A stretch of DNA of 64,000 nt from an uncultured Gemmatimonadaceae bacterium (GTDB lineage Bacteria > Gemmatimonadota > Gemmatimonadetes > Gemmatimonadales > Gemmatimonadaceae): assembly GCA_963790305.1 (NCBI GenBank), contig CAWBOC010000005.1, forward strand, positions 544,001-608,000, in the 5' to 3' direction. Shown here piece by piece: positions 1-64,000 of the stretch; within the stretch, counting starts at the first letter, position 1; every line of letters begins with the position of its first letter. A model generated the notes under the pieces. It saw only the letters and a program-made list of their open reading frames with translations, was not told the origin of the DNA and searched no databases. The translations under genes were made by a program, and so were the position numbers.

Positions 1-2020
1 GATCAGCGCTCCGACCTCGTTCGCGCGCATCGATCTGCGGAATGGCCCTGATGCCTGCCGCCTTCGCCTGCGCCGCGCTGGTCGCCAGCTGACCCGCGTA
101 GGTGAACGCCGCCGGCAGCACCATCGTATCGACCATCTGCTGCAGCGTGTACAGCTCGATCAGCATGTCCTTGATGTACCGCTCCATGCGGACATGGTAG
201 CGTGACTCGAGCTCCTCCTTCGTCAACACACCAAGCTTGCTCAGCAGCGACCGTGACTGCTTCGTCACCAGCTGCGCCAATGCCTCGGGCGTCCGGCGGT
301 AGTTAGGCAGCCCACGCTTCTCCGCTTCCGTCACCCACTCCTCGGCGTAGTTGTTCCCTTCGAAGCGGACGGGGGTCGACTCCTTGAACGACTCCTTCAC
401 GACCTTGAGCACGGCGTCATCCACCGACTTCGTCTTCTTGAGCTCCGCCTTCAGCGCCTCGGTGATCTCGGCCAGGCCATCGGCGACCGCGGCGTTCAGG
501 AGCGTCACCGGGAACGCGATCGACTGCGACGATCCCACCGCGCGGAACTCGAACTTGTTCCCCGTGAACGCGAACGGTGACGTGCGGTTGCGATCGGTGT
601 TGTCCTTCTCGATGTCGGGCAGCTTCGCCACGCCCAGCTTGATGAGCTGCTGCTCGGCGCCGCGGGCCGATTCCTTTCCGGCGATGATGCCATCGATCAG
701 CTTCGTCAGCATGTCGCCCATGAACACCGAGATGATCGCCGGCGGCGCTTCGTTCGCGCCGAGACGGTGTTCGTTGCCCGAGGTCGCGATGCCCGCGCGC
801 AGCAGGCCCGAGTGCTTGTGCACGCCGCGCAGTACCGCCGCCAGGAATACGAGGAAGCGGATGTTCTGATGCGGCGTCTTGCCGGGCTTGAGCAGGTTGA
901 GGCCGTCGAGCTCGTTGTCGGCCGTGATCGCCATCGACCAGTTGCAGTGCTTGCCCGAGCCGTTGATGCCGGCGAACGGCTTCTCGTGCAGCAACGCCTG
1001 GAGCCCGTGCCGCAGGGCGACGCGACGCATCGTCGCCATCACCATCTGGTTGTGGTCGACGCCGAGGTCGGTCTCCTCGAAGTGGGGCGCCATCTCGAAC
1101 TGCGACGGCGCGACCTCGTTATGCCGCGTCACGATCGGCACGCCGAGCTTGTAGAGCTCCTGCTCGATCTCGGCAATGCACGCCTGGATGCGCTCGGGAA
1201 TGCCGCCGAAATAGTGGTCCTCGAGCTGCTGGCCGCGTGGAGGTGGAGCGCCGACGAGCGTGCGGCCGGCCATGACGAGGTCGGGACGCATCGCGAAGTA
1301 ATTCCGGTCGATCAGGAAGTACTCCTGCTCCGGTCCCAGCGTCGTGAACACGCGCTGCACGCCCTTGTCGCCTAACAGCTCGAGCAGCTCGATCGCGCGC
1401 TGCGACAGCATGTCCGAGCTCCGCAGCATCGGGGTCATCTCGTCGAGCGCCTCGCCGTTGTAGCCGATGAACACCGACGGAATGCACAGCGTGCGGACGC
1501 CGCCCACCTCGTGGATGAACACCGGGCTGGCGGGGTTCCATGCCGTGTAGCCGCGCGCTTCCCAGGTCGCGCGCAGACCGCCCGACGGGAAGCTCGACGC
1601 ATCCGGCTCGCTCTGGATCAGCTGCGACGCCGAGAACGACTCCATCGGATGCTGGTTCTCGTCGAACGACAGGAAAGCATCGTGCTTCTCGGCGGTGAGT
1701 CCGGTCTGGGGCTGAAACCAGTGCGTGAAATGGGTCACCCCCCTGGAAATCGCCCATTCCTTGATGACCTGCGCCACGACGGGCGCAATCTCGAGGTCGA
1801 GCTTTTTCCCGAGTCGCACGGAGGCGACCAGCTTCTGGTAGACGTGCGCCGGCAGCTTGTCGCGCATCTGACGCGCGCCAAAGGTATTGCAGCCGAAGTA
1901 GGAGGAAGTCGGCAGATGGGCTCCGTTGGTGTGCGCGGACCCGTTAGGCGTGGCAGTGGGACGTGCGGTACGCCCCGCGATCTCCTGAAGGATAGCGCGG
2001 CGTGGACTGGCGACGGGCAT
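1..2020 (-). CDS. glnA: Glutamine synthetase type III (3' end beyond the window edge)
   Basis: Not in the ORF track because it has no stop in the window. Manual translation from ATG 2020 gives THFTHWFQPQTGLTAEKHDAF, EPDASSFPSGGLRATWEARGYTAW, GPEQEYFLID, TRHNEVAPSQFE and HEKPFAGINGSGKHCNWS, all GSIII motifs. Confidence 0.95.
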   Translation of the reverse strand, partial: MPVASPRRAILQEIAGRTARPTATPNGSAHTNGAHLPTSSYFGCNTFGARQMRDKLPAHVYQKLVASVRLGKKLDLEIAPVVAQVIKEWAISRGVTHFTHWFQPQTGLTAEKHDAFLSFDENQHPMESFSASQLIQSEPDASSFPSGGLRATWEARGYTAWNPASPVFIHEVGGVRTLCIPSVFIGYNGEALDEMTPMLRSSDMLSQRAIELLELLGDKGVQRVFTTLGPEQEYFLIDRNYFAMRPDLVMAGRTLVGAPPPRGQQLEDHYFGGIPERIQACIAEIEQELYKLGVPIVTRHNEVAPSQFEMAPHFEETDLGVDHNQMVMATMRRVALRHGLQALLHEKPFAGINGSGKHCNWSMAITADNELDGLNLLKPGKTPHQNIRFLVFLAAVLRGVHKHSGLLRAGIATSGNEHRLGANEAPPAIISVFMGDMLTKLIDGIIAGKESARGAEQQLIKLGVAKLPDIEKDNTDRNRTSPFAFTGNKFEFRAVGSSQSIAFPVTLLNAAVADGLAEITEALKAELKKTKSVDDAVLKVVKESFKESTPVRFEGNNYAEEWVTEAEKRGLPNYRRTPEALAQLVTKQSRSLLSKLGVLTKEELESRYHVRMERYIKDMLIELYTLQQMVDTMVLPAAFTYAGQLATSAAQAKAAGIRAIPQIDARERGRSAD

Positions 2021-2056
2021 GGGGGTGGGGCTCCGAGTCGGGGAACTGGGTGAAGG

Positions 2057-2084
2057 CTGCGAACTGCGTACTGCGTACTGCGTA
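2057..2084. repeat. Heptamer tandem repeat (CTGCGWA)x4 upstream of glnA
   Basis: ctgcgaa ctgcgta ctgcgta ctgcgta. Confidence 0.8.
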
Positions 2085-2381
2085 GTCTGCAGATCTGGCA
2101 AATTTATGCCCTCGTTTCGCGAAATCCAGGCCACGTTTTGGACGCTTTGACCCCGTGTTCGTGCAGAAAACGCACGATCACGCGGGCAGTGAGGCGTCCC
2201 GCCGATGCGCGGGCGCTACACTCCATGAGAACGCTTAAATGAAACAACGGCAGTCCTTTAGATCGCGTGACTACGCCTGACGGCGGCGCGTCTGAACACT
2301 GTGGTCGCCGTCCCCCCCGGAGCGGCCAGATCGGCGCGTCCGGGTTTGCCTATCCGCTGAATCCAAAAGGACTTCCAGACA

Positions 2382-2705
2382 ATGAATCGCCTGTTTGCCT
2401 CCGCCCTACTCGCCCTCGGGCTGGTCGCCATGCTCAACAACGCCAGCGCCGCCCAGCAGCACGTAGCCGCGCTGGGGAAAAAGTTCTCCACGGAAGAGGT
2501 CAGGATCGCCTCCGAGGACATGGTGATCTTCATCAACCAGGACAAGGTGGTTCATCAGGTCTTCTCGGTCACCGACGGACTTCGCTTCAACCTGAAGCGC
2601 CTTCCGCCGGGAGCTGCCAGCGGCGTTCGCTTCAAGAAGCGCGGTGTCGCCGAAGTTCGGTGCGCGATCCATCGCGACATGCGCATGAAGGTCGTCGTCG
2701 AGTAG
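2382..2705 (+). CDS. Small exported cupredoxin-fold (type 1 copper) protein
   Basis: Signal peptide; VHQVFS His plus C-terminal CAIHRDM (C-x2-H-x2-M) copper ligand loop. Confidence 0.8.
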   Translation: MNRLFASALLALGLVAMLNNASAAQQHVAALGKKFSTEEVRIASEDMVIFINQDKVVHQVFSVTDGLRFNLKRLPPGAASGVRFKKRGVAEVRCAIHRDMRMKVVVE

Positions 2706-2712
2706 CCCGCGA

Positions 2713-4625: not shown

Positions 4626-6767
4626 ATGCGACTTCGCACTCTTTTCCTCATCGCTGCCACCGCGTTCGCGCCGCTGGCGGAAGCCCAGCGTCTCCAGTAT
4701 CCCGCGTCGAAGAAGGGAGACGTCGTTGACGACTACCACGGCACCTCGATCGCGGATCCCTTCCGCTGGATGGAGAACCTCGGCAGCACCGAGACTGTCG
4801 CCTGGATCCGCGCGCAGAACGCTGTCACACACAGCTATATGGAGAAGCTTCCGTACCGCGAGACGCTACGGAAGCGCATCACCGAGCTCTGGGATTACCC
4901 GAAGGTGTCGCTGCCATACCGCGAGGGCGGCCGCGTCTTCTATAGAAAGAACAGCGGGCTCCAGAAGCAGTCGGTGCTGTACATGCGGCGCTCACTCAGT
5001 GGCCCTCCGAGAGTCGTGCTCGACCCCAACAAGCTCTGGCCCGATGGAGCGACGGCGCTCTTCGGGTACACCGCCTCTCCGGACGGGAAGCACATCATCT
5101 ACTCGGTCTCCGAAGGGGGCGCGGACTGGCAAACGCTCCGCGTCCGCGACCTAACGACGCTTCGCGATCTTCGCGACAGCGTGCGGTGGGTCCGCTTCTC
5201 GGGCGTCGAGTGGACGAACGATGGAAAGGGGTTCTTCTACTCGCGCTATCCTGAGCCTCCGAAGGGCAAGAAGCTCGAAGCCGCGCTCAGCGGGCACGCT
5301 TTGTATTACCACCGTCTGGGCACGCCGCAGTCGCAGGATCAGCTGATCTATCAGCAAAAGGACCTGCCGACCTGGCTCTCCATTGGCGATGTCTCCGAGG
5401 ATGGCCGCTACCTCGTGATCGCCGTCTACCGTGGAGCGGATCCACGGAACCGACTGTACGTGAAGACGCTGGGCGACCCGATGGAGCCGAACATCAGCGC
5501 GCCGGTGAAGCCGCTCATCGTGGATGACGACGCGGAATTCACCTACATCGGCAACGTTGGCACGACGTTCTACGTGCGCACCGACCGTGGCGCGCCGAAT
5601 CGGAAGGTGATCGCAGTCGACGTGCGAGATCCGGCGCCGGAGAAGTGGCAAACGCTCATTCCCGAATCGAAGAACGCGATCGAGAACCTGGCATTAGCGG
5701 GCGGGCAGCTGGCCGTGCAGTACCTGGTGGATGTGAAGAGCGAGGTGAGGCTGTTCGATCCCAAGGGCAACCCGGCGGGCACGATCTCGCTTCCGGGAGT
5801 CGGCTCGGTGTTCGGTCTCTCAGGCCGGTACGACACGCCGGAGCTCTTCTACTCCTACACGTCGCCGCTCTATCCGACGACGGTGTTCCGCTACGATCAT
5901 CGATCGAAACAGAGCGCGCCCTTCGAGGCGGCCGCCTCGAAGTTCGACGTCGAGGGATATGAGACGAAGCAGCTATGGGCGACGTCGAAGGACGGAACGC
6001 GCATTCCCTACTTCGTGACGGCGCGCAAAGGATTGGCGCTCGATCGCGCCAATCCAACGCTCCTGTACGGCTACGGCGGCTTTTCCATCAGCGAGACACC
6101 GTACTATCGCCCGGATGTACCGGCCTGGCTGGAGCTCGGGGGCGTCTACGTCACCGCCAACATGCGCGGCGGCGGCGAGTACGGTGAGGCGTGGCATCAG
6201 GCGGGCATGCTCGACAAGAAGCAGAACGTCTTCGACGACTTCATCGCCGTCGCCGAGGCGCTCGTCCGCGAGGGCTATACCTCGCCCGAGCATCTCGCCG
6301 TGCTCGGTGGGTCGAATGGCGGTCTCCTCGTCGGCGCCGCAATGACCCAGCGCCCCGAGCTGTTCGCGGTGGCTCTCCCCGCCGTGGGCGTGCTCGACAT
6401 GCTGCGTTACGACAAATTCACCGGCGGCGCGCTGTGGGTAAGCGAGTACGGATCACCGTCGGACACGGCCGCCTTCAAGTACCTGCGTGCCTACTCACCG
6501 CTGCATAACGTGCGAGCGGGGACGTGCTATCCCGCCACGATGGTGACGACGTCGGACCACGATGACCGCGTGGTACCGAGCCATTCGTACAAGTACACGG
6601 CGGTGCTCCAGGAAGCACAGGGATGCGACAAGCCGATCCTGCTGCGTGTGGAAACGATGACGTCGCACGGCTATCGTCCGACCGACAAGCGGATCGCGGA
6701 GCTGGCCGATCAGTGGGCGTTCGCGATCGCAAACACGGGGATGAAGGTCGTCGACGTGACGCCGTAA
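4626..6767 (+). CDS. Prolyl oligopeptidase (S9A), exported
   Basis: GGAGA RBS before ATG 4626; signal peptide; DPFRWME, YGYGGF, GGSNGG nucleophile, HDDRV, SHG. Confidence 0.95.
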   Translation: MRLRTLFLIAATAFAPLAEAQRLQYPASKKGDVVDDYHGTSIADPFRWMENLGSTETVAWIRAQNAVTHSYMEKLPYRETLRKRITELWDYPKVSLPYREGGRVFYRKNSGLQKQSVLYMRRSLSGPPRVVLDPNKLWPDGATALFGYTASPDGKHIIYSVSEGGADWQTLRVRDLTTLRDLRDSVRWVRFSGVEWTNDGKGFFYSRYPEPPKGKKLEAALSGHALYYHRLGTPQSQDQLIYQQKDLPTWLSIGDVSEDGRYLVIAVYRGADPRNRLYVKTLGDPMEPNISAPVKPLIVDDDAEFTYIGNVGTTFYVRTDRGAPNRKVIAVDVRDPAPEKWQTLIPESKNAIENLALAGGQLAVQYLVDVKSEVRLFDPKGNPAGTISLPGVGSVFGLSGRYDTPELFYSYTSPLYPTTVFRYDHRSKQSAPFEAAASKFDVEGYETKQLWATSKDGTRIPYFVTARKGLALDRANPTLLYGYGGFSISETPYYRPDVPAWLELGGVYVTANMRGGGEYGEAWHQAGMLDKKQNVFDDFIAVAEALVREGYTSPEHLAVLGGSNGGLLVGAAMTQRPELFAVALPAVGVLDMLRYDKFTGGALWVSEYGSPSDTAAFKYLRAYSPLHNVRAGTCYPATMVTTSDHDDRVVPSHSYKYTAVLQEAQGCDKPILLRVETMTSHGYRPTDKRIAELADQWAFAIANTGMKVVDVTP

Positions 6768-6770: not shown

Positions 6771-6870
6771 GCGGAATGCGGAATGCGGATTGTGAACGTG
6801 AAACCGCCTAACAAATGAGGGCTCCCACCGAGGTCGGAGCCCTCATTCGTAGAGCGAATTCGCAATCCGG
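6771..6870. repeat. Intergenic element: GCGGAAT heptamers, central hairpin (probable bidirectional terminator), degenerate inverted heptamers
   Basis: gcggaat gcggaat gcggatt (6771-6791); stem aatgagggctcc 6814-6825 / ggagccctcatt 6836-6847; aattcgc aatccgg 6857-6870; lies between convergent genes. Confidence 0.7.
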
Positions 6871-13198: not shown

Positions 13199-15505
13199 TG
13201 ACGGCACGGCTCTCGATCGCGTGCGCCGCCCTGATTTTCTCCGCGGCATCGGCGGCGGCACAGGCAGGACCATCCCGGGCGACGCGTTTCGTCGATTCCC
13301 TCGTCGCGCGGATGACGCTCGAAGAGAAGCTCGGTCAGCTCACCCAGGTGCCCGGACGCTGGGGCGACACGGGACCGCAGGTTCCCGAAGGCGGTGAGGA
13401 CGAGATTCGTCGCGGGCACGTCGGCTCGTTCCTCGGCGTCTTCGGTGCGGGGTACACGCGTCGCATGCAGGAGATTGCGCTTCAGTCGCGGCTGAAGATC
13501 CCACTCCTGTTCGCGCACGACGTCATCCACGGCTTCCGCACGATCTTTCCCGTTTCGATCGCCGAAGCAGCGTCGTGGGACCCCCAGGCGGTGGAGCGCG
13601 CCGCGCGCATCGCCGCGACGGAGGCGACCGCCGCGGGGTTGCACTGGACCTTCGCGCCAATGGTGGACATCGCCCGCGACGCGCGGTGGGGACGCATTGT
13701 CGAGGGTGCCGGAGAGGATCCGTATCTCGGATCGATCATGGCCGGTGCGCGCGTGCGGGGCTTTCAGGGCACCGATCTCAGCGCTCCGAACACGATGCTC
13801 GCGACGGCGAAGCACTTCGTCGGCTACGGCGCGGCCGAAGGCGGGCGCGACTACAACATCGCCGACATCCCAGAGGTCACCCTTCGCGACATCTACCTGC
13901 CGCCGTTTCACGCAGCGGTCGACGCGGGCGCGGCGTCGGTCATGGCATCGTTCAATGAAGTTGCCGGCGTTCCGGTGCATGCCAGCGAGCGGTTGATCGA
14001 CGGTTTGCTGCGTACGGAGTGGGGATGGAACGGCCTCCTCGTCAGCGACTGGACGGGGGTGCTCGAGCTCATTCCGCACGGCGTGGCAGCCGACTCCGCG
14101 GCGGCGGGAGCGCTCGCGCTGCGTGCGGGCGTCGACGTCGACATGGTAAGCCGCATCTACTTCAACAAGCTGACACCACTCGTCCGATCGGGACGAGTCA
14201 GCGATGCGAGACGTCGACGCCGCGGTGCGGCGCGTCCTGCGCGCGAAATACGACCTGGGTCTCTTCGCCGATCCGTTCCGCTACAGTGACACGACGCGCG
14301 AGCGCCAGACGCTACTCGCCGCCGAGCATCGCGCGGCGGCGCGTGAGCTAGCGCGGAAGGCGATCGTGCTCCTCAGGAACGAGGGCCGAGCGCTCCCACT
14401 TGCCAAGTCGTTAGGTACGATCGCGGTCATCGGGTCCCTTGCCACCGACGCACGCTCCTCGATCGGCAACTGGTCGGCCGCGGGACGTGCCGAAGAAGGC
14501 GTCACGGTGCTGGACGGCATTCGCCGCGCCGTGCCGTCGGCGCGCGTCGTCTACGCGCGTGGCGCGGACTCGGCCACCGCCGACACCAGCGGATTCGCTG
14601 AAGCCGTTCGCGTGGCGCGCGATGCGGATGTCGTCGTCCTCGTGGTCGGCGAGCATCAGGAGCAGAGCGCGGAAGCGAACAACCGCGCGTTCCTCGGCTT
14701 GCCGGGCGCGCAGGACGGGCTCGTGCGGGCGGTGCGTGCAGCGGGGAAGCCCGTCGTCGTCGTGCTGATGGGCGGGCGTCCGCTCGCGATCTCCTCGTTC
14801 GCGGACAGCGTGCCCGCGATCATGCACGCCTGGTACCTCGGCACCGAGATGGGGAATGCGGTGGCGGACGTGCTGTTCGGCGAGGCGAACCCCTCGGGCA
14901 AGCTCCCTGTGACGATCCCGCGCACGGTCGGACAGGTTCCGCTGTACTACAACCACAAGCACACCGGCCGGCCGCCGGTCGCGAACCAGAAATACACGTC
15001 GAAGTACATCGACGTGCCGTGGACGCCGCTTTACCCGTTCGGCCATGGATTGAGCTACACGACGTTCGCGTATCGCAATCTCCGGCTCAGCGCGACGACC
15101 ATGCGACCGGGCGATACGCTGATCGTCAGCGTGGACGTCACGAACACCGGCGATCGCGTGGGCGACGAGGTGGTTCAGCTGTACATCCGGGATGAAGTCG
15201 GCACGCTCACGCGCCCGGTGAAGGAGTTGCGCGGCTTCCGCCGCATCACGCTCCAGCCCGGCCAGACGCAGTCCGTGTCATTCCCCCTCGGCTCCAAGGA
15301 TCTGGCCTTCCATGACGCGGCGCTCGATCTCGTCGTCGAGCCGGGATTCTTTCGCGTGTACGTGGGGTCGAGCTCCGAGCGTGTGGAGGAGGCGCGCTTC
15401 GAGCTCGTCGATCCGCGGCGATGCGGGAAGCGCGTGCTGCGGCGCGAGGTTCCGAGGTTCACATGGCCGGTGAAGAGTCGAGTGGGGGCAGTGGCATGTC
15501 GATGA
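13198..15505 (+). CDS. bglX: GH3 beta-glucosidase BglX, split by a +1 frameshift near 14203
   Basis: MTLEEKLGQL, DVIHG, ARDARWGR, KHFVGYG, VSDW in frame 1; continues DVDAAVRRVL..NPSGKLP..YPFGHGLSYTTF..EVVQLY in the 14204 ORF; span 2308 nt = 3n+1. Confidence 0.88.
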
Positions 15506-25478: not shown

Positions 25479-25480
25479 CC

Positions 25481-25590: not shown

Positions 25591-25598
25591 GACTCTCC

Positions 25599-28109: not shown

Positions 28110-28305
28110 AACCCGCCAGCGATCCCAGGGTCGGGACGTTCAGCCTGGGCATATGTGAGTAAAGAGAGGGGAGCGTACCTGGCGCAACTGTCGGGACTCA
28201 CGCTGCCATCTCCAAGTCCGCACCATAACCCAGCGCGACAAGACGGCCCCGCGGCAAGCAGGGCTCTCCACGAGCGCTCCATCTGCTCCATCTCCGCCGA
28301 GGCGC

Positions 28306-31410: not shown

Positions 31411-31413
31411 CGC

Positions 31414-36151: not shown

Positions 36152-36180
36152 GCATCGGCGACACCAACTCCTCGGACACC

Positions 36181-50954: not shown

Positions 50955-52190
50955 ATGCAGTCCACTCGCAAGCCTGGAGCGCGCATTCGTGCGCCCGGCA
51001 GCCCGCCCAAGCCACGGCGTCCGCTGTCGCGCGGGGGCTCTTTTTTCGGCCGCCTCCTCGCCATCCTGGTTACCTGCTGGTTGGTGGTCGGCGCCATGGT
51101 CGCTCCCGTGATTCCGGGAGGATGGCCTGCCATGGGCGTGGCGATGCTCGTGCTCACCGGGTTGCCGCTCGCGGCATTCATCGGGCGCCAGCGGCGACGA
51201 GAGACGCCGGGGGCGTTCGTCAGACTCTTCGTCTACCGGCCCTTCTGGTACGCACAGCTCCTGGTGCTGTTCGCGGGAGCCGCCGGCATCGCGGGGCTTC
51301 TGCTCGGTGCGCCGTTCGGCGCCGCGCTGACCCTCGGGCGGTGGATGATCGCCGCGGCATCCGCCCTCTTCGCGTTAGGCGCGATCGCGGGATGGGTCGG
51401 CTCGCGGTGGCTGCACCTCCGCCAGCTCACCGCCACCTTCCCCGACCTGCCGCCCTCGCTCGAAGGGCTGCGCATCGTCCAGCTGTCCGACCTCCACATC
51501 GGCCCGCAGACGTCGCGCCGCTTCCTCCACCGGGTGCGCTCAATGGTGGCGGCCGCGGGCGGAGACCTCATCGCGGTGACCGGCGACCTCGTCGACGACC
51601 ACGCGCCCGACAGCGCCCACTACGCCGCGGCGTTAGGCGAGCTCACCGCCCCGCTCGGCGTCTACGTCGTTCCCGGCAATCACGACGTCTACGCCAACTG
51701 GCCGGCCGTACGCGCTGAGCTGGAGCGGTTGCCGGTGACGATCCTGGTCAACGAGTCACGGGTGGTTGCGCGCGGCGAGGGACGGTTCGCCATTGCCGGA
51801 ACGGGAGATCCGGCCGGTCGCTGGGTGGCGACGTCGCATGCGGCACCCGACATCGACGCCGCGCTTGGCGACGTTCCGCCGGGCACCTTCACCATCGCGC
51901 TGGCCCATAACCCGTCGCTCTGGTCTGCGCTCGCCGACCGCGGCGTCGATCTCACCCTGAGCGGCCACACCCATTGGGGTCAGCTCGCGTTCCCGAAGTT
52001 CAAGTGGAGCCTGGCCGGACTCTTCCTCGATCACGCCATGGGGGTGGTTACGCGCGACGCTTCGCTGTTGTACATCCACCCGGGCACGGGGTTCTGGGGA
52101 ATTCCGTTCCGGATTGGCGCGCGTCCCGAAGTCACCATCATCGAGCTGAGACGCGGCGCTCGCGTGGGACTTGGATCCGTCACTGGATGA
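50955..52190 (+). CDS. Membrane-anchored metallophosphoesterase
   Basis: N-terminal TM segments; SDLH, GDLVD, GNHD, AHNP, GHTHWGQ. Confidence 0.92.
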   Translation: MQSTRKPGARIRAPGSPPKPRRPLSRGGSFFGRLLAILVTCWLVVGAMVAPVIPGGWPAMGVAMLVLTGLPLAAFIGRQRRRETPGAFVRLFVYRPFWYAQLLVLFAGAAGIAGLLLGAPFGAALTLGRWMIAAASALFALGAIAGWVGSRWLHLRQLTATFPDLPPSLEGLRIVQLSDLHIGPQTSRRFLHRVRSMVAAAGGDLIAVTGDLVDDHAPDSAHYAAALGELTAPLGVYVVPGNHDVYANWPAVRAELERLPVTILVNESRVVARGEGRFAIAGTGDPAGRWVATSHAAPDIDAALGDVPPGTFTIALAHNPSLWSALADRGVDLTLSGHTHWGQLAFPKFKWSLAGLFLDHAMGVVTRDASLLYIHPGTGFWGIPFRIGARPEVTIIELRRGARVGLGSVTG

Positions 52191-53230: not shown

Positions 53231-55063
53231 ATGCGCAAGAGCATAGCGGCAGGGCTCATTCTTGGCGTTACGGCGCTCGCGTGCCGTGGCGAAGCTGATC
53301 GGCAGGCACGCAGCGACAGCGCGCGAGCGCGGACCGCAACGGTAGCTGGCGGGCGAATCGCGGCCGCGCGTACGGGACCAGCGGGCGAGTGGGGCATGCC
53401 GGCCGGGGACTACGCGAACTCCCGCTACAGCGAGCTATCGCAGATCACTGTCGCGAACGCGAAAGACCTGCGCGTGGCGTGGGCCTTCTCGACTGGAACG
53501 CTGCGCGGCCACGAAGGGCAACCACTCGTCATCGACAACACGATGTACGTGGTCACTCCCTTCCCGAACGTCGCGTACGCATTCGATCTCACGCAGGCGG
53601 GACAGCCGCTCAAATGGAAGTTCCGGCCGCGCAACTCACAGGCGGCCATCGGCCAGGCGTGCTGCAATGTCGTGAACCGCGGAGCAGCGTACGCCGACGG
53701 CAGGCTCTTCTACAATCTCCTCGAAGGCACCACCGTCGCCGTAAACGTTCGAGACGGCACACAAGCGTGGCGCACTCGCGTCGCGAACCTGGAGCGCGGC
53801 GAGACGATCACGATGGCACCCATCGTGGTGAAGAATCACGTGCTCGTCGGCAACAGCGGCGGGGAGCTCGGCGTGCGCGGATGGATCGCGGCGCTCGACA
53901 CGCGGACGGGAAAGGAAGTCTGGCGCGCGTACAGCGCGGGGCCCGATCGCGACGTGAAGATCGGACCCCGCTTCAAGCCATTCTACGCCCACGACCGAGG
54001 CACGAACCTCGGCGTCTCCACCTGGCCGGCGGACGCATGGAAAACCGGCGCCGGTGCCGTGTGGGGATGGCTGTCGTACGACCCGGAGCTCAATCTCGTG
54101 TACCACGGCACCAGTAACCCGGGACCGTGGAACGCCGAACAGCGTCCGGGCGACAACAAGTGGACGTGCGCGATCCTCGCGCGCGATGCCGATACGGGCG
54201 AGCTCGTGTGGGCGTTCCAGGTGACGCCGCACGACATGTGGGACTACGACGCGGTCAACGAGAACATCCTCGTCGACCTTCCCATCGAGGGCACGCTGCG
54301 AAAGGTGCTCGTCCACTTCGATCGGAACGGCTTCGCGTACGTCCTCGACCGGGCGACCGGCGAAGCGCTCATGGCCCACCCCTTCGTGCCAATGAACTGG
54401 TCGACGGGAGTAGACCTAACGACTGGCCGCCCGACGGTGGTCCCGGCAAAGGCCACCGCGCAGGGGAAGAAGGTGACGAACATCTGTCCGAGCCTCGAGG
54501 GCGGGAAGAACCAGCAGCCCGCGGCGTTTTCCCCCAAGACCGGCCTGTTCTACGTCCCAACGATCAATCTGTGCATGGACTTCGAGGCCCGCCCGGCCAC
54601 CTACATTCCCGGGACACCGTACATCGGCGCGAGCGCGCCGGAATACGCTGGACCGGACGGCTACCGTGGCGAGTTCATGGCATTCGACGTCACCACCGGT
54701 CGCAAGGCGTGGGGGATCCGTGAGCCATACCCGGTGTGGGGCGGTGCGCTCGCGACGGCGGGCGACGTCGTGTTCTACGGCACCCTCGACGGGTGGTTCA
54801 AGGCCGTCGATGCGCACACCGGTGACGTTCTGTGGCGGTTCAAGCTGGGCTCTGGTGTCGTCGGGAATCCCGTGACGTATCTGGGTCCGGACGGCAAGCA
54901 GTACGTCGCCATCTACTCCGGGCTCGGTGGCGACATGGGCGTGCTCATCGCCGGGGATGTTTCCGCGAACCTCCCCCACGATGTGCGCGTGCGCGGCACG
55001 ACCCTTCCCGACATTGGGCGGTGGACGAGCTGGGGCGGGGTGCTGTTCGTATTCTCGTTGTAG
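53231..55063 (+). CDS. xoxF: PQQ-dependent methanol/ethanol-family dehydrogenase, XoxF-like (lanthanide signature), probable lipoprotein
   Basis: FSTGTLRGHEG, ACC-VVNRG, GGELGVRG, WGW.SYDP, NPGPWN, RPGDNKW, TPHDMWDYDAVNE, YGTLDG. Confidence 0.8.
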   Translation: MRKSIAAGLILGVTALACRGEADRQARSDSARARTATVAGGRIAAARTGPAGEWGMPAGDYANSRYSELSQITVANAKDLRVAWAFSTGTLRGHEGQPLVIDNTMYVVTPFPNVAYAFDLTQAGQPLKWKFRPRNSQAAIGQACCNVVNRGAAYADGRLFYNLLEGTTVAVNVRDGTQAWRTRVANLERGETITMAPIVVKNHVLVGNSGGELGVRGWIAALDTRTGKEVWRAYSAGPDRDVKIGPRFKPFYAHDRGTNLGVSTWPADAWKTGAGAVWGWLSYDPELNLVYHGTSNPGPWNAEQRPGDNKWTCAILARDADTGELVWAFQVTPHDMWDYDAVNENILVDLPIEGTLRKVLVHFDRNGFAYVLDRATGEALMAHPFVPMNWSTGVDLTTGRPTVVPAKATAQGKKVTNICPSLEGGKNQQPAAFSPKTGLFYVPTINLCMDFEARPATYIPGTPYIGASAPEYAGPDGYRGEFMAFDVTTGRKAWGIREPYPVWGGALATAGDVVFYGTLDGWFKAVDAHTGDVLWRFKLGSGVVGNPVTYLGPDGKQYVAIYSGLGGDMGVLIAGDVSANLPHDVRVRGTTLPDIGRWTSWGGVLFVFSL

Positions 55064-55072: not shown

Positions 55073-55567
55073 ATGTCGAGACTCTGGTATTTGTTGCCGT
55101 GCCTAACGGTCGTTGGAGCGGCGGTGGCGGCGACGAATGGCGTCCAGGCGAATGCGCAGGTGGTTGCCGACACGCTACGTTTCGTCGCTCACGAGGAGTA
55201 TATCCCGGTGGGGTTGCCGTCCCGGGCCAGGCCATTGGCGCTGACAAATCCGTTCGACGGGAACCGCGAGGCGATCGCGACCGGAGCGCGCATCTTCGTC
55301 GCGTACAATTGCGTGGACTGTCACGGCGCCGACGGCTCCGGCGCAATGGGGCCGAGCTTCCAGGACGGCCGTTGGCGCTTCGGCGGTTCGGCGGGAGAGG
55401 TCTTCGAGTCGATCTACCAGGGCCGGCCCGAAGGCATGCCCGCCTGGGGCGGGCGAATATCGGAAGAGCAGATCTGGATGCTTGTCGCCTATATTCGCAC
55501 CCTCACGGCGGGTGACCTGACGACGGAGAACTTCAGCGGGGCCGCGCAGGAGCGAATGGGACACTGA
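55073..55567 (+). CDS. Exported c-type cytochrome (XoxG/cytochrome cL-like partner)
   Basis: Signal peptide; NPF, CVDCHG, MGPSF, GMPAW; directly downstream of the PQQ dehydrogenase. Confidence 0.85.
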   Translation: MSRLWYLLPCLTVVGAAVAATNGVQANAQVVADTLRFVAHEEYIPVGLPSRARPLALTNPFDGNREAIATGARIFVAYNCVDCHGADGSGAMGPSFQDGRWRFGGSAGEVFESIYQGRPEGMPAWGGRISEEQIWMLVAYIRTLTAGDLTTENFSGAAQERMGH

Positions 55568-56077: not shown

Positions 56078-56297
56078 GTTCACCCCTCGAGATCGCGCGG
56101 TCGGCCAGTGGGTGCTGGCGGTGATGTTCACCATCGCCGCCGTCGCCGCGGCCCTCTGGAGCTGGCGGCTGATTCGCGCCGAGGGACTGACCGTGCGGTC
56201 GGCGATCTGGGTGCTCGCGCTGCTCGGTTTCATCTCACTCGCCTGGCGAAGCGCACGCGCTGCCAGCCTCGCTGGTCGAGGAGCACCGCCGCCCTAA
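56070..56297 (+). CDS. Small 2-TM membrane protein
   Basis: MAEFTPRDRAVGQWVLAVMFTIAAVAAALW...; overlaps the upstream stop. Confidence 0.55.
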   Translation: MAEFTPRDRAVGQWVLAVMFTIAAVAAALWSWRLIRAEGLTVRSAIWVLALLGFISLAWRSARAASLAGRGAPPP

Positions 56298-56309
56298 CGA
56301 GGGAACGGG

Positions 56310-57782: not shown

Positions 57783-59219
57783 ATGTCAGTCTGCGATCAC
57801 TGCGCAACCGAGCTTCCGGACGCCGCACGCTTCTGCTTCGTCTGCGGGCAGGACGTCGTTCCGACGGCCGCGGCGGCGACGAAGCCGCACCTCGAAGCCG
57901 ATGCGATCGGCAAGCTCAAGGCGCGCTTGGCGAAAAGCCTGGACGGTCGATACCAGCTGCGTGAGCTCCTTGGCGCCGGTGGCATGGGGGTCGTGTTCCT
58001 CGCCGAGGACCTCAGCCTCGGCAGGTCCGTAGCGATCAAGGTGCTCCCGACGGAGCTCTCGAGCGACAGGAACATTGTGGCGCGCTTCCGGCGGGAGGCG
58101 AAGACCGCCGCCAGCCTCGACCATCCCGGGATCATCCCCGTGCTGTCGGTCGAGAGCGACCAGGAGTTGCACTACTTCGTCATGAAGTACGTTGCCGGGC
58201 AAACGCTCGAAGCGACGCTGCGTGACGGGCCGCTTCCCATCCCGCTGGCGGTTCAGGTGCTGCGCGAAGCCGCGGCTGCACTCGGCTACGCCCACCGGCG
58301 TGGAGTCGTCCATCGCAATGTGAAGCCGGCGAACATCATGCTCGAGGACGACCGCGTCATCGTCACCGACTTCGGCATCTCGAAGGTCGAGGCGACCTCG
58401 TCGAGCAGTGCGACGACCGCCGCGCGATTGACCGACCTCGGTACGGTCGTCGGCACCCCCGCATACATGGCACCCGAGCAGGCGATCGGTCAGCCCGTCG
58501 ATGGCCGCACCGACCAATACGCGCTGGGCGTCGTCGGCTTCGAGATGCTGGCCGGGAAGGTTCCGTTCGATGACCTGACGCCGCACGCGATCATTCAGCG
58601 TCACATCAACAATCTGCCCCCCGATCTGGGGACGCTGCGGCCCGATGCACCGCGACATGTCCTGGGGGCGATCTCGCGCGCTCTGTCGAAGGCGCCGTCC
58701 AATCGATTCCCGACAATGGAGGAGCTCGCGGCGGCGCTCGCCGGCGCCGGATCTCGCGGGACGGCGAACCTCGAGTTCTCGGTGCCGGTCGCGAACATGA
58801 CAGAGACGACGCCGCGAGTCGTGACCGCGTCGAAAGGCAGCCGGCTCGGGCGCTGGGCGGCAGTCGTCGTGTTGTTGCTCGCTGGTATCGGCGGTGCCGC
58901 GGCGTGGGCCCGCGGTGCGCGCGATACGCCAGCGCGGGCGGCGGAGGTCAGCGCGCCCGCGCGCCCGAGCACGACGGAGCGGTCGGCCCGTCGCCGCTCA
59001 GTCTCGTTCACCGTCGACGCGAAGCCGCGCGCCACGATCTACATCAACGACGTGCGCGTCGGGGAAACGCCGCTGTCCGGGCACAGGCTGCTCGTCGGCC
59101 GCGAGTATCACATTCGCGCCGTACGCGACGGCTACCGCACGAAGCGCGAGACGATCACGACCACGGGAACGGCGCCCGTCCGGCGCAGCTACGTACTGGA
59201 GCGCGCGAGGCGCCGTTAG
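57783..59219 (+). CDS. Hanks-type Ser/Thr protein kinase with N-terminal zinc ribbon, TM and PEGA-like domain
   Basis: CxxC..CxxC; GAGGMG, VAIK, HRNVKPAN, DFG, GTPAYMAPE; GETP. Confidence 0.93.
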   Translation: MSVCDHCATELPDAARFCFVCGQDVVPTAAAATKPHLEADAIGKLKARLAKSLDGRYQLRELLGAGGMGVVFLAEDLSLGRSVAIKVLPTELSSDRNIVARFRREAKTAASLDHPGIIPVLSVESDQELHYFVMKYVAGQTLEATLRDGPLPIPLAVQVLREAAAALGYAHRRGVVHRNVKPANIMLEDDRVIVTDFGISKVEATSSSSATTAARLTDLGTVVGTPAYMAPEQAIGQPVDGRTDQYALGVVGFEMLAGKVPFDDLTPHAIIQRHINNLPPDLGTLRPDAPRHVLGAISRALSKAPSNRFPTMEELAAALAGAGSRGTANLEFSVPVANMTETTPRVVTASKGSRLGRWAAVVVLLLAGIGGAAAWARGARDTPARAAEVSAPARPSTTERSARRRSVSFTVDAKPRATIYINDVRVGETPLSGHRLLVGREYHIRAVRDGYRTKRETITTTGTAPVRRSYVLERARRR

Positions 59220-59965
59220 GCGATCTGCAGGCCAAGGTGGAACGTCCCCGCGTAGCCCTGGCCAGCTTCCGCGACGCTCAGCATCAACTGGTCGCCATTG
59301 CGCCGGAAGATACCGTCGCCCTCGTTGCGTACGGTCCGCTGCCCCTTACTCACGTACGGCTCCCGCGCGTGCACGCGGTCGGTGAGCGCATCATCGAAGT
59401 AGAGCTGTGACGTGAACTCGTGGCCCCGCGCCGCGGCGGGCTCTGTCCGCACCTTGAAGTGCGTGTGGACGGTTCTCCCGCGGTACCATCCTGGATAGAT
59501 CGTGGTGAACCGCGCCGTTCCGGTGGCGTCGGTCAGCTGATAGCCGCGGAGAAAGAGCTGACCCATCGTGTCGAAGGATGGATCACGTACGCCGGAGTAC
59601 ACGCCGTCGGCGTCGCATTGCCAGAGATCGACGCGGGCGCCCGAGAGCGGCGTGCACGCGCCGCCGTTCCCAATGCGGGACACAACGATCGCGATCTCGA
59701 GTGGAGCGCCCGCCTTGGTCGCGCCGCTCTGGGGATCGGATCGAATGTCGGAGCGATCGAGGCGGCCATCCACGAAGTACGGGCCCTCGGTCTGCTCAGG
59801 GCGAACGACGCATGACGGCAGCGCGCCGGCTGACGCCATGCCTCCTTCGGCCACCTCGCGAGATGGCCTGCATCCGGCGAGTGCCGCGAGACCGGAGGCA
59901 CCGAGCAGCGCGAGAATCTCGCGGCGCGAGAGCAGCCTGCCGACCTGGACGTCGTCGCGATCCAT
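59216..59965 (-). CDS. Intradiol ring-cleavage dioxygenase family protein with Tat/lipoprotein signal
   Basis: SRREIL..LAGC; EGPYF, WQCDADGVYS, TIYPGWY.GRTVHTH. Confidence 0.9.
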   Translation of the reverse strand: MDRDDVQVGRLLSRREILALLGASGLAALAGCRPSREVAEGGMASAGALPSCVVRPEQTEGPYFVDGRLDRSDIRSDPQSGATKAGAPLEIAIVVSRIGNGGACTPLSGARVDLWQCDADGVYSGVRDPSFDTMGQLFLRGYQLTDATGTARFTTIYPGWYRGRTVHTHFKVRTEPAAARGHEFTSQLYFDDALTDRVHAREPYVSKGQRTVRNEGDGIFRRNGDQLMLSVAEAGQGYAGTFHLGLQIA

Positions 59966-60025: not shown

Positions 60026-61369
60026 ATGCCAGCCCTGCGCCGCCCGCCCGGCCCCAAAGGCCACTTCCTCCTCGGCAACCTTCCGGAGCTGGGGACCGAC
60101 ATCCTCGGACTCTTCGCATCCTGCGCGCGTGATCATGGGGAGGTCGCCTTCCTGAGCCTCGCAGGATGGCCGGCGTTCGTGCTCAGCAATCCGGAGCACA
60201 TTGAGCAGGTGCTGGTGACTGATCACAAGAACTTCATCAAGCACACGTTCTTTTGGCGTCACGTCCGGGGCATTTTCGGCAACGGGCTGCTCACCAGCGA
60301 GGGCGACTTCTGGCTTCGTCAACGGCGTCTCGCACAGCCGTCGTTCCACCGGGACCGCATCGCGGCCTATGGCGACGTGATGGTGAGCTACACCGAGCAC
60401 GCGCTTGACCAATGGCGCGACGGCGACACGCTCGACGTGCATCACGAGCTCATGCGTCTCACGCTGTTGATCGTCGCGAAAGTGCTGTTCGATGCCGACG
60501 TGGCGCATGAGGTGGAAACCATTGGCGGCGCGCTCGACGATGCGACGAAGGAGATCGCCTCTCGATTTCGCCGGCCCTTCCGAATTCCCGACGCGATCCC
60601 GATTCCCGGGAATCTCCGGTACAAGCGCGCCGTTCGTCGGCTCGACGGCGTCGTCCATCGCATCATCGACGAGCATCGGGATCACGATGGGCGGGGCGAC
60701 CTGCTCGGCATGCTCATGCAGGCGCGGGATGAAGACGGCCGGGCAATGACCACCGAGCAGCTACGCGACGAGGCGATCACCATCCTTCTCGCGGGGCACG
60801 AGACCACGGCGATCGCGCTGTCGTGGGCGTGCTACCTTCTGTCGAAGCACCCGGCGGTCGCCGAGAACATCCGGACGGAGCTCACCGACGTTCTCGGCAG
60901 CAAGCGAGCGCCGACGGTCGCGGACCTGCCACGGCTGCGATTCACCGAAATGGTGGTCATGGAGGCGATGCGGCTCTATCCTCCCGCGTACGCGTTAGGC
61001 CGCGAGGCGGTCGAGGACTGTACGATCGCCGGCTATCAGGTCCCCGCCGGGACCTCGATCTTCATCAGTCCCTGGGTCGTGCATCGCGACGCGCGGTGGT
61101 TCGACCGCCCGGAGGAATTCCTCCCGGAGCGGTGGGCGGGAAATGCCGCGCAGCGGTTGCCGAGGTTTGCGTACTTCCCCTTTGGAGGGGGGCCGCGCAT
61201 CTGCATTGGGAATCGATTCGCGATGATGGAAGCGGTGCTGCTGCTCGCCTGCATCGTGCGGCGATTTCGGTTGGTGCTGGATGACGAAAAGGGCGTAGCG
61301 CTCTTTCCAACGATCACGCTACGCCCCGCTAACGGCATCAGGATGACGGTCCGCAGACGTTCAGTCTGA
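60026..61369 (+). CDS. Cytochrome P450
   Basis: AGHETT, EAMR (ExxR), PERW, FGGGPRICIG. Confidence 0.97.
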   Translation: MPALRRPPGPKGHFLLGNLPELGTDILGLFASCARDHGEVAFLSLAGWPAFVLSNPEHIEQVLVTDHKNFIKHTFFWRHVRGIFGNGLLTSEGDFWLRQRRLAQPSFHRDRIAAYGDVMVSYTEHALDQWRDGDTLDVHHELMRLTLLIVAKVLFDADVAHEVETIGGALDDATKEIASRFRRPFRIPDAIPIPGNLRYKRAVRRLDGVVHRIIDEHRDHDGRGDLLGMLMQARDEDGRAMTTEQLRDEAITILLAGHETTAIALSWACYLLSKHPAVAENIRTELTDVLGSKRAPTVADLPRLRFTEMVVMEAMRLYPPAYALGREAVEDCTIAGYQVPAGTSIFISPWVVHRDARWFDRPEEFLPERWAGNAAQRLPRFAYFPFGGGPRICIGNRFAMMEAVLLLACIVRRFRLVLDDEKGVALFPTITLRPANGIRMTVRRRSV

Positions 61370-63047: not shown

Positions 63048-63060
63048 GGGAGCTAAAAAA

Positions 63061-63096
63061 GGCGCTAAGGGCGCTGGGGGCGCTAGGGGCGCTGAA
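63061..63096. repeat. Nonamer repeat GGCGCTNNN x4
   Basis: ggcgctaag ggcgctggg ggcgctagg ggcgctgaa; same unit as at 4501. Confidence 0.8.
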
Positions 63097-63098
63097 GG

Positions 63099-63240
63099 AG
63101 GGATCAGGAGTCAGGAGTCAGGGATCAGGGGTGGAAAGGGGCCGCCGCGCTTCGCGCGGGCGGCCCTCATCAGATGAGCGCGGCAGCTGGGCTGCCGCGC
63201 CTTTCCATCCCTGACTCCTGATCCCTGACTCCTGACCCCT
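63099..63240. repeat. 41-bp imperfect inverted repeats built from AGGRRTC heptamers enclosing two GC hairpins
   Basis: agggatc aggagtc aggagtc agggatc aggggtggaaagg ... cctttccatccctgactcctgatccctgactcctgacccct. Confidence 0.85.
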
Positions 63241-63241
63241 A

Positions 63242-64000
63242 CTAGTCTGCCAGCTTCCGTAGCTCCGCCAGCAGCGCCACCTCCTGCGGCGACGGTATCG
63301 CGGAGCGCGCCACCAGCTTCACCAGCTCACTGTCGCGCTCGTACAGATCGTTCGCGAACCACAGGTTGCCGTCGCGCACGTACGCCGTGAAATACACGAT
63401 GTAGACGGGGATTTTCTTCTTGAGCACGACCTGACGATTCGTTCCCTCCGTCGCGCGCTCGATCCGGTCCTCCGTCCATCCAGGCATTCCCGCGAGCGCG
63501 TACTTCGCCAGCTCCAGCGGCTTCTCGACACGGATGCATCCGTGGCTGAACGCGCGCACGTCGCGATCGAACAGCGAATGATCGGGCGTGTCGTGCAAAT
63601 AAATGTTCAGATCGTTGGGGAAGATGAACTTCACCGTTCCAAGCGCGTTCTTCTTGCCCGGGCGCTGGCGAATGCGCGGACCGCCCCGATCTTCCACGAT
63701 CTCGTATTCGTTGCGCTCCAGATAGCTGGGATCGGCGTTGATCTTCGGCCACAGCTCCTCCTCAGCGATCTTCTCTGGAACGTTCCAGTACGGCGCGAAC
63801 TCCAGGTAGGTCATCGAGTCGGCGAACGCCGGCGTTGCCTGGTCGGCGTAGTCCTGGCCGACGATCACCTTCATCGAGAGGACGGGCCGTCCGTTGTCGT
63901 AGGCGTCGAGGTGGAACGCCGGCACGTTGACGTAGATGTACCGGTCGCCTAACGAACGCGGCATCCAGCGATACCGCTCGAGATTGGCCATGATCTGTCC
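63242..64000 (-). CDS. L,D-transpeptidase (YcbB/YkuD family), 5' end beyond the window
   Basis: NLERYRW, VNVPAF, PYWNVP, NALG.VKF.FPN, IYLHDTP, SHGCIR. Confidence 0.93.
   Translation of the reverse strand, partial: GQIMANLERYRWMPRSLGDRYIYVNVPAFHLDAYDNGRPVLSMKVIVGQDYADQATPAFADSMTYLEFAPYWNVPEKIAEEELWPKINADPSYLERNEYEIVEDRGGPRIRQRPGKKNALGTVKFIFPNDLNIYLHDTPDHSLFDRDVRAFSHGCIRVEKPLELAKYALAGMPGWTEDRIERATEGTNRQVVLKKKIPVYIVYFTAYVRDGNLWFANDLYERDSELVKLVARSAIPSPQEVALLAELRKLAD

Follow-up and report, generated by a model that had tools for sequence, protein, structure and literature searches.

The window analyzed here is a 64-kb stretch of G000, a 4.31-Mb Gemmatimonadaceae MAG from a soil bacterium. It carries exactly 27 copies of the word CCTAAC/GTTAGG, at the positions listed in the first-pass annotation of this DNA and with the 15:12 orientation split given there (CCTAAC 15 times on the plus strand and 12 times on the minus strand). 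In dinucleotide-preserving shuffles of the window, the mean count was 6.64 and the maximum 14, and 0 of 100 shuffles reached 27. As had also been claimed, 21 of the 27 copies extend to CCTAACG and 4 to CCTAACA; one of the remaining copies is followed by T and one by C. Eighteen sites are preceded by G, and 13 form the full octamer GCCTAACG. The estimate of about ten other CTAA/TTAG tetramers was close, with 43 such tetramers in the window, 27 of them in the word and 16 elsewhere, including 4 within a 9-bp tandem repeat at 4505-4532.

Within genes, the word is read in several frames. It appears as CCT-AAC (Pro-Asn) at 302..307 (minus strand, TGCCTAACTA, in a minus-strand gene), 1943..1948 (minus, full octamer, CGCCTAACGG), 37528..37533 (plus, full octamer, gene 35782-39603), 39352..39357 (plus, full octamer), and 44193..44198 (plus, CACCTAACGG, gene 43602-44498). 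The site at 39352 is kept in 8/8 aligned congener stretches and that at 37528 in 4/8, the rest having GCCTGACG or GCCGAACG. The frame G-TTA-GG (Leu-Gly) is used at 1371..1376 (plus, CGCCTAACAG, in an opposite-strand gene), 18316..18321 (minus, again CGCCTAACAG, gene 17645-18685), 22540..22545 (minus, full octamer, gene 21332-23992, kept in 3/3 aligned congeners), 25265..25270 (minus, TGCCTAACCG, gene 24606-25478), 60994..60999 (minus, full octamer, gene 60026-61369), and 63948..63953 (plus, full octamer, in a minus-strand gene running off the window). The frame C-CTA-AC (Leu-Thr) is found on the plus strand at 5150..5155 (GACCTAACGA, gene 4578-6767), 23251..23256 (full octamer, gene 21332-23992, kept in 2/3 aligned congeners), 33197..33202 (GCCCTAACGA, gene 32166-34331), 38325..38330 (CCCCTAACGG, kept in 0/8 aligned congener stretches, which have CTG or TTG there), 54415..54420 (GACCTAACGA, gene 53231-55063, encoding a PQQ dehydrogenase), and 55102..55107 (full octamer, gene 55073-55567). 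Five copies had been said to contain stop codons, and an ORF of at least 129 aa does end at each: TAG of the minus-strand ORF 28306-29286 (28305..28310, plus, full octamer), TAA of ORF 31021-31410 (31406..31411, plus, TACCTAACGC), TAG of ORF 34508-36151 (36147..36152, minus, full octamer), TAA of ORF 55848-56297 (56293..56298, plus, GCCCTAACGA), and TAG of ORF 57783-59219 (59215..59220, minus, full octamer). The copies outside called genes lie at 6807..6812 (plus, CGCCTAACAA), 14410..14415 (minus, TACCTAACGA), 34461..34466 (minus, TACCTAACAC), and 51374..51379 and 51632..51637 (both minus and full octamers).

Genome-wide, GCCTAACG occurs 855 times in G000 (436 forward, 419 reverse) against 44 to 68 expected copies and is the rank 1 outlier among 32,583 octamers. 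The first-pass annotation had only the 6- or 7-mer form and missed the octamer, which is non-palindromic, its reverse complement, CGTTAGGC, being a different sequence. The hexamer CCTAAC itself has 1,547 sites (796 on one strand and 751 on the other); about 1,530 are expected from single-base frequencies, which bears out the earlier caveat that the raw count is close to a mononucleotide expectation. Under Markov models, the observed/expected ratio of the octamer ranges from 12.6 (order 1) to 19.3 (order 3), far from the value near 1 that would have spoken against a signal. The motif has sharp edges: information content is approximately zero beyond positions −1 and +6, and the sequences on either side of the 1,547 sites show no conservation. 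A REP or MITE-type repeat was accordingly rejected, there being no conserved flanks and no longer palindromic unit. One-letter variants of the word are also enriched in a position-dependent manner; GTTATGC and GTCAGGC are enriched, and GTTAAGC, GTTAGAC, and GTTGGGC are not.

The word overrides codon choice. When synonymous codons were shuffled within genes so that proteins were preserved (40 shuffles), 40.4 ± 5.8 copies were obtained in genes, compared with 630 observed, a ratio of 15.6. Where Leu stands in the context xxG-Leu-Gly, 10.7% of its codons are TTA, compared with 0.27% after a codon whose last letter is not G, so that the excess of TTA in the word context, on which the first-pass annotation had made its proposal depend, is clear; 533 of the 1,040 TTA codons of G000 sit in G-TTA-GG. 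The word is present in all six frames plus spacers, at a density of 0.55/kb outside called genes versus 0.31/kb inside, and its density is even from one codon-usage class to another. In rpoB, there are 4 word sites in G000, 15 in G016, the genome richest in the word, and none in any of nine word-poor relatives. These sites arose at the codon level through CTC/CTG to TTA, CTN to CTA, and CCG to CCT and through the residue changes D to N, K to R, and A to G; a series of CTC, CTA, and TTA is seen inside the genus. The codon override and the several frames support the earlier proposal of a signal imposed on coding sequence at the DNA level, and the original observation is confirmed.

Sites are balanced between strands along replication arms, which we defined by cumulative GC skew. 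A 950-kb replichore arm of constant skew has a strand ratio of 159:155, and the two arms of contig C5 have ratios of 87:78 and 105:95. Neighboring sites have the same orientation in 776 cases and opposite orientations in 758. A non-palindromic octamer found about every 5 kb, with a copy number like that of Chi in Escherichia coli, might suggest a replication-oriented signal of the Chi, KOPS, or AIMS type; this reading is refuted because there is no skew, leaving it a negligible probability and agreeing with the earlier view that the motif is not strand-polarised. The sites are also evenly spaced, with short-range repulsion extending to about 500 bp in G000 and about 300 bp in G016. Close pairs are depleted in G000 (gaps of ≤100 bp, 17 versus 55 expected; gaps of ≤50 bp, 9 versus 28 expected), and inverted word pairs 30 to 160 bp apart number only 5 in the genome.

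Among congeners, the octamer was intact in 37 of 54 site-by-congener comparisons; for 8-nt windows overall, the figure in these alignments was 29%. More widely, scattered genera are rich in the word, their relatives have it about 15-fold less often, and inside one genus the density differs 60-fold between G235 and G291 on the one hand and the word-poor G287 on the other. The genomes G012, G005, and G030 are word-rich as well, and in the cultured Gemmatirosa kalamazoonensis the two megaplasmids hold 1,479 copies, which is reported here for the first time; chromosome-sized contigs and megaplasmids carry the word alike. Several lineages that are not sister to one another have expanded the identical octamer, a pattern more in keeping with a conserved reader that was already there than with a receptor specific to one lineage.

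Overlooked, too, in the first-pass annotation was an exact match: every letter of the word agrees with the R' core (GTTRRRY type) that integron attC sites have in this order, the crossover site of gene cassettes. attC sites have the consensus core GTTRRRY and inverse core RYYYAAC, and GTTAGGC conforms to the former. In the arrays of G021, G019, and G029, the attC sites fold as textbook bulged hairpins that run from GCCTAAC to CGTTAGGC, the latter matching the word at 8/8 letters. The order is rich in integron integrases: IntI scored above the curated cutoff in 22 of the 31 relatives and in all 5 of the further genomes. In G000 itself, an intact intI is accompanied by at least 10 short attC-like repeats in an array, and these end in GTTAGGG, not GTTAGGC. 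The dispersed words of G000 are single half sites without a hairpin that do not adjoin intI or cassettes: no cassette or solo attC was found beside them, and none of the five inverted pairs showed attC architecture (z scores of +1.25 to −2.07). They do not track the presence of IntI, and their enrichment and conservation show that they are not incidental.

As the best reading, held tentatively and as possible rather than probable, we propose by analogy that GCCTAACG may be an uptake-sequence-like self tag that acts at the DNA level for a putative sequence-specific protein. Of the three analogies offered in the first-pass annotation, that with uptake sequences fits best. Such a protein would read the octamer, which is kept at high and even density genome-wide, and a component of a DNA import or recombination route would prefer DNA that carries it. 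Alleles that held the word by chance would be taken up and recombined more often, and the word would therefore spread wherever the protein sequence tolerates it, by molecular drive possibly aided by selection. Uptake or recombination would then be the word-reading step, these bacteria would presumably be naturally competent, and the identity of word and attC core would reflect one reader specificity common to the order. The DUS of Neisseriaceae (receptor, ComP) and the USS of Pasteurellaceae resemble the word in being short, non-palindromic, strand-equal, and present in hundreds to thousands of copies, in occupying all frames and spacers against codon usage, and in being evenly distributed and lineage-restricted with enriched one-letter variants. 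The known systems differ in phylum, and it is the word that coincides with an integron core; the dialects of Neisseria DUS drift, whereas here an identical octamer recurs in several separate lineages, and Neisseria has inverted terminator-type pairs at gene ends, whereas the word lacks such pairs. The machinery for DNA import is there, ComEC and PilT each having been found in 31 of 31 genomes; both also occur in word-poor genomes and therefore do not discriminate. Profiling of ComEC, PilT, and the LTD lipoprotein revealed no dedicated word receptor; the last of these, a DNA-binding candidate reader, was rejected as uncorrelated with the word, and VirB4 was rejected, its family having been found in 0 of 31 relatives. 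A narrow literature search for natural competence in the phylum yielded no paper describing it. The word statistics listed above would equally arise for any other selected protein-binding site.

One such alternative, rather unlikely in our judgment, is that the word is read by IntI or a close tyrosine recombinase relative, the copies being double-stranded R-box half sites that could serve as attG-like cassette landing sites, as integrase-titrating decoys, or as sites recruiting chromosomal DNA. The 8/8 identity with the R' end of attC in three genomes, the wide occurrence of the integrase, and the intact intI of G000 argue for it, and an order-wide conserved reader would account for the repeated expansion of the same octamer. 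Cassette insertion at non-classical genomic attG sites has moreover been described in print, according to papers citing that work. On the other hand, word richness does not track integrase presence: no IntI above the cutoff was found in the word-rich G012 and G005, the richest genome, G016, has IntI only as fragments in three frames, and intact copies exist in many word-poor genomes, including G287. The GTTAGGG ends of the attC repeats in G000, the tolerated variants, which depart from GTTRRRY, and the lack of attC architecture in all five inverted pairs weigh against it as well, as do the two indels between G000 and G008 in the window, neither of which is bounded by the word; thousands of active recombination sites should also harm the cell. 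A binding site for an abundant nucleoid-associated protein, the third possibility raised in the first-pass annotation and one in which density would be kept by selection on chromosome organization, would agree with the even spacing and repulsion, orientation independence, presence on chromosome-sized contigs and megaplasmids, and uniform density over gene classes. We consider it distinctly unlikely, as no candidate protein was found, no nucleoid protein is known to us to drive codon-overriding octamers by the thousand, and the 60-fold contrast within one genus is hard to square with housekeeping architecture.

Improbable, too, is a neutral repair bias in which mismatch-specific nicking or very-short-patch-type repair converts near-cognates to the word in heteroduplexes, comparably to the action of Vsr at CCWGG. 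Such a bias would account for occurrence in every frame and in spacers without per-site benefit, and the single-step intermediates within the genus agree with it, but the deficit of close pairs is unexpected under pure conversion bias and the search of G000 for a C5 methyltransferase gave no match; Vsr was rejected as the source of the word, there being no family match in G000. Very unlikely, as well, is a target of a DNA modification enzyme, either HIP1-like and methyltransferase-linked or a Type IIG/BREX-like asymmetric site. MmeI-family sites are asymmetric with A in the penultimate place, a shape that CCTAAC shares, and G000 encodes a 1,021-aa MmeI-like Type IIG protein adjoining an SNF2 helicase. 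Word-rich or not, 29 of the 31 relatives have this protein, and residues apparently marking word-rich clades did not do so in the independent lineages G012, G016, and G030. The only other methyltransferase found in G000, of the D12 class, was not found in those same three word-rich genomes and is present in word-poor ones; neither enzyme tracks the word, and both were rejected as readers. PF01555 and PF00145 gave no match in G000. SMRT detects m5C and unusual modifications poorly. The published SMRT methylome of Gemmatirosa kalamazoonensis reports only RGATCY, ATGCAC, and CCAGN7TCA, and ATGCAC is unenriched there (37 copies versus about 45 to 50 expected). This strain is word-rich, and its methylome without the word is therefore evidence against an m6A/m4C methylation site. 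For these marks, to which the verdict is limited, the modification reading is largely refuted, and the methyltransferase analogy with HIP1 drawn in the first-pass annotation is contradicted. HIP1 (GCGATCGC) of cyanobacteria is reported to be a hyper-abundant octamer that is more conserved than chance would allow, recurs at quasi-regular spacing, and had an obscure function for decades (PMC4390886, PMC5861425, PMC13756078), and the word is likewise hyper-abundant, conserved, and evenly spaced. Unlike the palindromic HIP1, which is recognized by orphan methyltransferases, the word lacks symmetry, does not appear in the m6A/m4C methylome published for a word-rich strain, and shows no correlation with the methyltransferases that were found.

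One further reading, unlikely as it stands, is that the word and the integron core are the same signal, with one order-wide specificity. Either import would be tuned to the core, or the integrase family would read chromosomal half sites. In the import version, cassettes and self DNA would be preferentially imported, and highly transforming lineages would fill with the word. In the integrase version, thousands of half sites would make the whole chromosome a platform for cassette landing and recruitment. If true, either version would be the first link of integrons to a genome-wide sequence tag.

The window (G000:C5:544001-608000) lies in the 4.31-Mb assembly (13 contigs, 66% G+C) of the Gemmatimonadaceae genome G000. 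All 27 CCTAAC/GTTAGG sites listed by the first-pass annotation were located where it had placed them, compared to a mean of 6.6 and a maximum of 14 in 100 dinucleotide-preserving shuffles. As claimed, 21 of these sites extend to CCTAACG and 4 to CCTAACA; a G precedes the core in 18/27, and 13/27 carry the full octamer GCCTAACG; this motif, as core or full octamer, is here called the word. Of the 43 CTAA/TTAG tetramers in the window, 27 fall inside it.

Genome-wide, CCTAAC occurs at 1,547 sites in G000, split 796:751 between the strands. A G stands before the core in 71% of these sites and after it in 79%, and information content is absent outside the eight positions of the word, which is therefore not a REP or MITE element. 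The annotation had cautioned that the raw count is close to a single-base expectation, and rightly so: composition predicts by simple arithmetic about 1,530 CCTAAC sites, an agreement that arises because all other NCTAAN contexts are rare. The density of CCTAAC was 359/Mb in G000 versus 23/Mb in approximately 1 Mb of pooled word-poor relatives, a 15.5-fold difference, and the remaining fifteen NCTAAN contexts had similar densities in both. Under the Markov models that the annotation had proposed as a check, the excess of the octamer persisted, with 855 copies of GCCTAACG versus 68 (first order) or 44 (third order) expected, and it ranked first among 32,583 octamers under both models. One-letter variants were enriched at certain positions only (ACCTAACG, GCATAACG, GCCTAACA, and GCCTNACG). 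In two word-poor relatives, G009 (200 kb searched) and G010 (80 kb), no comparable alternative word was found.

We then delineated the word in coding sequence using gene calls that we made ourselves (3,136 genes, 79% of the genome); these are rough, so that the figures depending on them are approximate. The core was found in every reading frame and outside called genes: 533 copies read G-TTA-GG (Leu-Gly), 236 CCT-AAC (Pro-Asn), 191 C-CTA-AC (Leu-Thr), and 86 GTT-AGG (Val-Arg), while the stop-codon frames accounted for 46 and 48 copies, and 407 lay outside called genes. At each of the five window sites where a stop codon had been claimed in the word, an open reading frame of at least 129 aa indeed terminates within it. 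When synonymous codons were shuffled inside each gene with proteins preserved (40 shuffles), 218 ± 17 genic copies of CCTAAC and 40.4 ± 5.8 of the octamer were expected, versus 1,047 and 630 observed. Moreover, TTA made up 10.7% (533/4,965) of the Leu codons preceding Gly if the prior codon ended in G, and 0.27% (12/4,474) otherwise; 533 of the 1,040 TTA codons in called genes lie inside the word. The annotation had named two outcomes that would speak against a DNA-level signal, namely, a count near expectation under a codon-aware null model and no excess of TTA/CTA in this context; given the codon shuffle and the TTA contexts, neither was found.

The density of the word was 0.25 to 0.34 per kb across all codon-usage quintiles and flat along genes, and 0.55 per kb outside called genes. 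Replichore polarity was absent (159:155 on one 950-kb arm), and the relative orientation of neighboring sites was random (776 same, 758 opposite). Close pairs were scarce in G000, the pair-correlation ratio being 0.3 at <100 bp and approximately 1 near 500 to 750 bp; in the word-rich genome G016, the ratio reached approximately 1 near 300 bp.

Among 31 relatives examined, with the unpublished word-poor genome G015 as one comparator among several and no conclusion depending on it alone, all members of the G000 genus were rich in the octamer (382 to 1,006 copies). Beyond this genus, G012 (605 copies), G016 (6,360 in 5.1 Mb), and G030 from another family (345) were also rich, and the remaining 19 genomes held 6 to 65 copies. 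In a 183-kb sample of G016, CCTAAC occurred every 490 bp with unchanged motif edges. Across 301 genomes of the phylum, with richness set at ≥300 copies and ≥2 times the reversed-word control, 11 passed, 9 from the Gemmatimonadaceae and 2 from one genus of a second family, and none of the 106 sampled genomes from the other ten families did. Within one genus, G235 and G291 carry 3,896 and 4,141 copies beside 66 in G287, which is 92% identical to the rich pair over the 736 RpoB residues compared and has CTC at all five RpoB-region sites of the pair. One conserved-protein tree, on which gains and losses are indistinguishable, requires at least three to four changes of the rich/poor label, and RpoB identities are in line with this.

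How the word arises was examined in a codon alignment of rpoB, seven further loci being left out for spurious antisense frames. rpoB contains 4 word sites in G000, 3 in each of its congeners G006 and G003, 15 in G016, 4 in G030, and 0 in nine word-poor relatives. At the orthologous places, word-poor genomes have CTC or CTG-GGN, CTN-ACN, or CCG-AAC; thus, most sites are synonymous recodings, and some exchange one residue for a similar one (D to N, K to R, and A to G). One site reads CTC, CTA, and TTA across three congeners, and the same permissive positions were hit in separate lineages. In congener alignments, the octamer was intact in 37/54 site-by-relative comparisons versus 29% of all 8-nt windows, the 54 comparisons representing only about a dozen distinct sites in nonindependent relatives.

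Two DNA methyltransferases are recognizable in G000, an MmeI-like Type IIG enzyme and a D12-class enzyme. The former (1,021 aa) adjoins a 739-aa SNF2/DrmD-like helicase at L024:9023-14371 (G000:C7:233022-238370). It is kept in 29/31 genomes of the order, word-rich or not, with identities of 87% down to 36% that track phylogeny, a stability unusual for a restriction-type gene. Six columns in its alignment appeared to mark word-rich genomes (R880 in 13/17 versus 0/38) and failed on the independent lineages G012, G016, and G030. The D12-class gene is uncorrelated with the word, as it was not found in these same three genomes and is present in word-poor ones. Four further proteins with methyltransferase-like motifs were identified as aconitase, a CarboxypepD_reg protein, UxuA, and RlmL, and no match to Vsr, C5 methyltransferases, or the N6_N4 family was found in G000 (94% complete). 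The cultured Gemmatirosa kalamazoonensis strain KBS708, a nonpathogenic soil isolate, is word-rich, with 778 and 701 octamers versus 20 and 19 reversed controls, as counted on its two megaplasmids only; in a 150-kb sample, 115/127 CTAA tetramers lie within the word. The SMRT methylome paper on this strain, which names GEO GSE55390 for the deposited kinetics, lists only the m6A motifs RGATCY, ATGCAC, and CCAGN7TCA, each >99% modified. m6A or m4C on the word is therefore unlikely, since such modification of so abundant a word would have been reported; m5C is conceivable. ATGCAC was not enriched in the 150-kb sample. At NZ_CP007130.1 108118-108173 (KBS708 plasmid 2), four octamers are spaced 12 or 24 bp apart, suggesting a short tandem repeat that incorporates the word.

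Candidate readers linked to DNA transfer did not discriminate either: ComEC and PilT are universal among the relatives, a DNA-binding LTD lipoprotein encoded in a DNA-capture-like locus shows no correlation with the word, and VirB4 was found in 0/31 relatives. Other repeats were also observed. A 9-bp tandem repeat of four GCGCTAAAGG-containing units lies at window positions 4505-4540; nonamer arrays akin to CGCCTCTAG, which the annotation had called nonamer repeats, are scattered over the genome, chiefly outside called genes (of 306 CTCTAG sites, 77 are genic). Downstream of a gene at 24606-25478, a hairpin at approximately 25480-25590 (−50 kcal/mol over 180 nt) has arms composed of heptamers in tandem, GGATTGC and its complement. 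A related octamer, AATGCGGA/TCCGCATT (628 copies versus 98 expected), ranks next in over-representation behind the word and the derivatives that overlap it.

Clusters in the word-poor relatives G021 (C95), G019 (C3), and G029 (C1) were considered a tandem-repeat gene, a notion dismissed by folding, which revealed integron cassette arrays. Their units of approximately 95 to 140 nt recur every 500 to 650 bp or a multiple thereof, start with GCCTAAC, terminate in CGTTAGGC, and adopt bulged hairpin folds with energies of −25 to −39 kcal/mol, except for one truncated unit. Thus, the word equals the R′ end of attC, the cassette recombination site, over all eight letters. Over its first 20 kb, the G021 array (L003/L004, G021:C95:1-24000) contains 19 attC-type pairs, compared to 6 in L005 (G019:C3) and one in L006 (G029:C1); sites are near-identical inside a given array. 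Integrons in Gemmatimonadota are on record (PMC8618304). G000 has its own at G000:C9:694912-715400 (L182), with an intact intI and, downstream on the same strand, an array of at least 10 short (∼45-nt) attC-like repeats ending in GTTAGGG, in a region of low coding score.

That the word is read by an integrase-related protein is unlikely; the idea keeps some weight because the identical octamer rose repeatedly and equals the integron core of the order, pointing to a conserved, preexisting specificity. However, the integrase IntI, above the curated cutoff in 22/31 relatives and 5/5 further genomes, fails to discriminate word richness by presence or intactness: it went undetected in the word-rich genomes G012 and G005, consists of fragments in G016, and is intact in many word-poor genomes. 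Furthermore, the repeats of G000 itself end in GTTAGGG, and the enriched one-letter variants depart from the GTTRRRY degeneracy of attC. Inverted word pairs in G000 do not qualify as solo attC sites (attC architecture in 0/5), and the word bounds neither of two window indels between G000 and its congener G008, both boundaries lying away from it. A cassette origin was likewise rejected: few of the 341 open frames of ≥70 aa in the three arrays (at least 16 query frames) had G000 homologues, and no clear attC lay in the flanks of the five homologues inspected, one of which has only a GTTAGGC within a short inverted repeat downstream.

Two segments of the window differ between G000 and G008. A 1.1-kb stretch at 24459-25599, replaced by 107 bp in G008, carries the gene at 24606-25478, whose product shares 64.5% identity across 265 aa with an ORF in the G021 cassette array; no attC was seen beside it. 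An 8.9-kb stretch at 27277-36177 has no counterpart at the syntenic locus of G008 and of the relative G002, which have approximately 97 bp instead; parts are present in G003 and G004, and its boundaries fall in spacers, away from the word.

Altogether, our data fit a protein-read DNA tag maintained by drive or selection. Tentatively, uptake-sequence drive would keep up the word; to our knowledge, no other mechanism gives an asymmetric word statistics of this kind. It is doubtful that the two readings combine, with DNA import favoring the integron core or the chromosome acting as a platform for cassettes. Non-classical attG sites in genomes, as well as the capture of cassettes from single-stranded transforming DNA, are described in PMC12614218 and a bioRxiv preprint.

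We found no published description of the word in literature searches on the octamer, on CCTAAC/GTTAGG methylation, or on uptake sequences in the phylum, nor in passages on Gemmatimonadota integrons or GTTAGGC as an integron core. We know of only two bacterial families, those of the uptake sequences DUS and USS, with hyper-abundant genomic words whose reader is known. The cyanobacterial octamer HIP1 has gone unexplained for decades (PMC4390886, PMC5861425, and PMC13756078). The word is a third, very strong case of hyper-abundance, in a little-studied soil phylum. Since it equals the integron crossover core of the order and rich and poor genomes coexist within one genus, its reader should be findable by comparative genomics, and the word richness of the cultured type strain of G. 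kalamazoonensis opens the question to direct laboratory tests. If an uptake preference is true, sequence-specific DNA uptake would extend beyond the Proteobacteria; if the integrase link is true, it would inform our view of cassette recruitment and placement by integrons.
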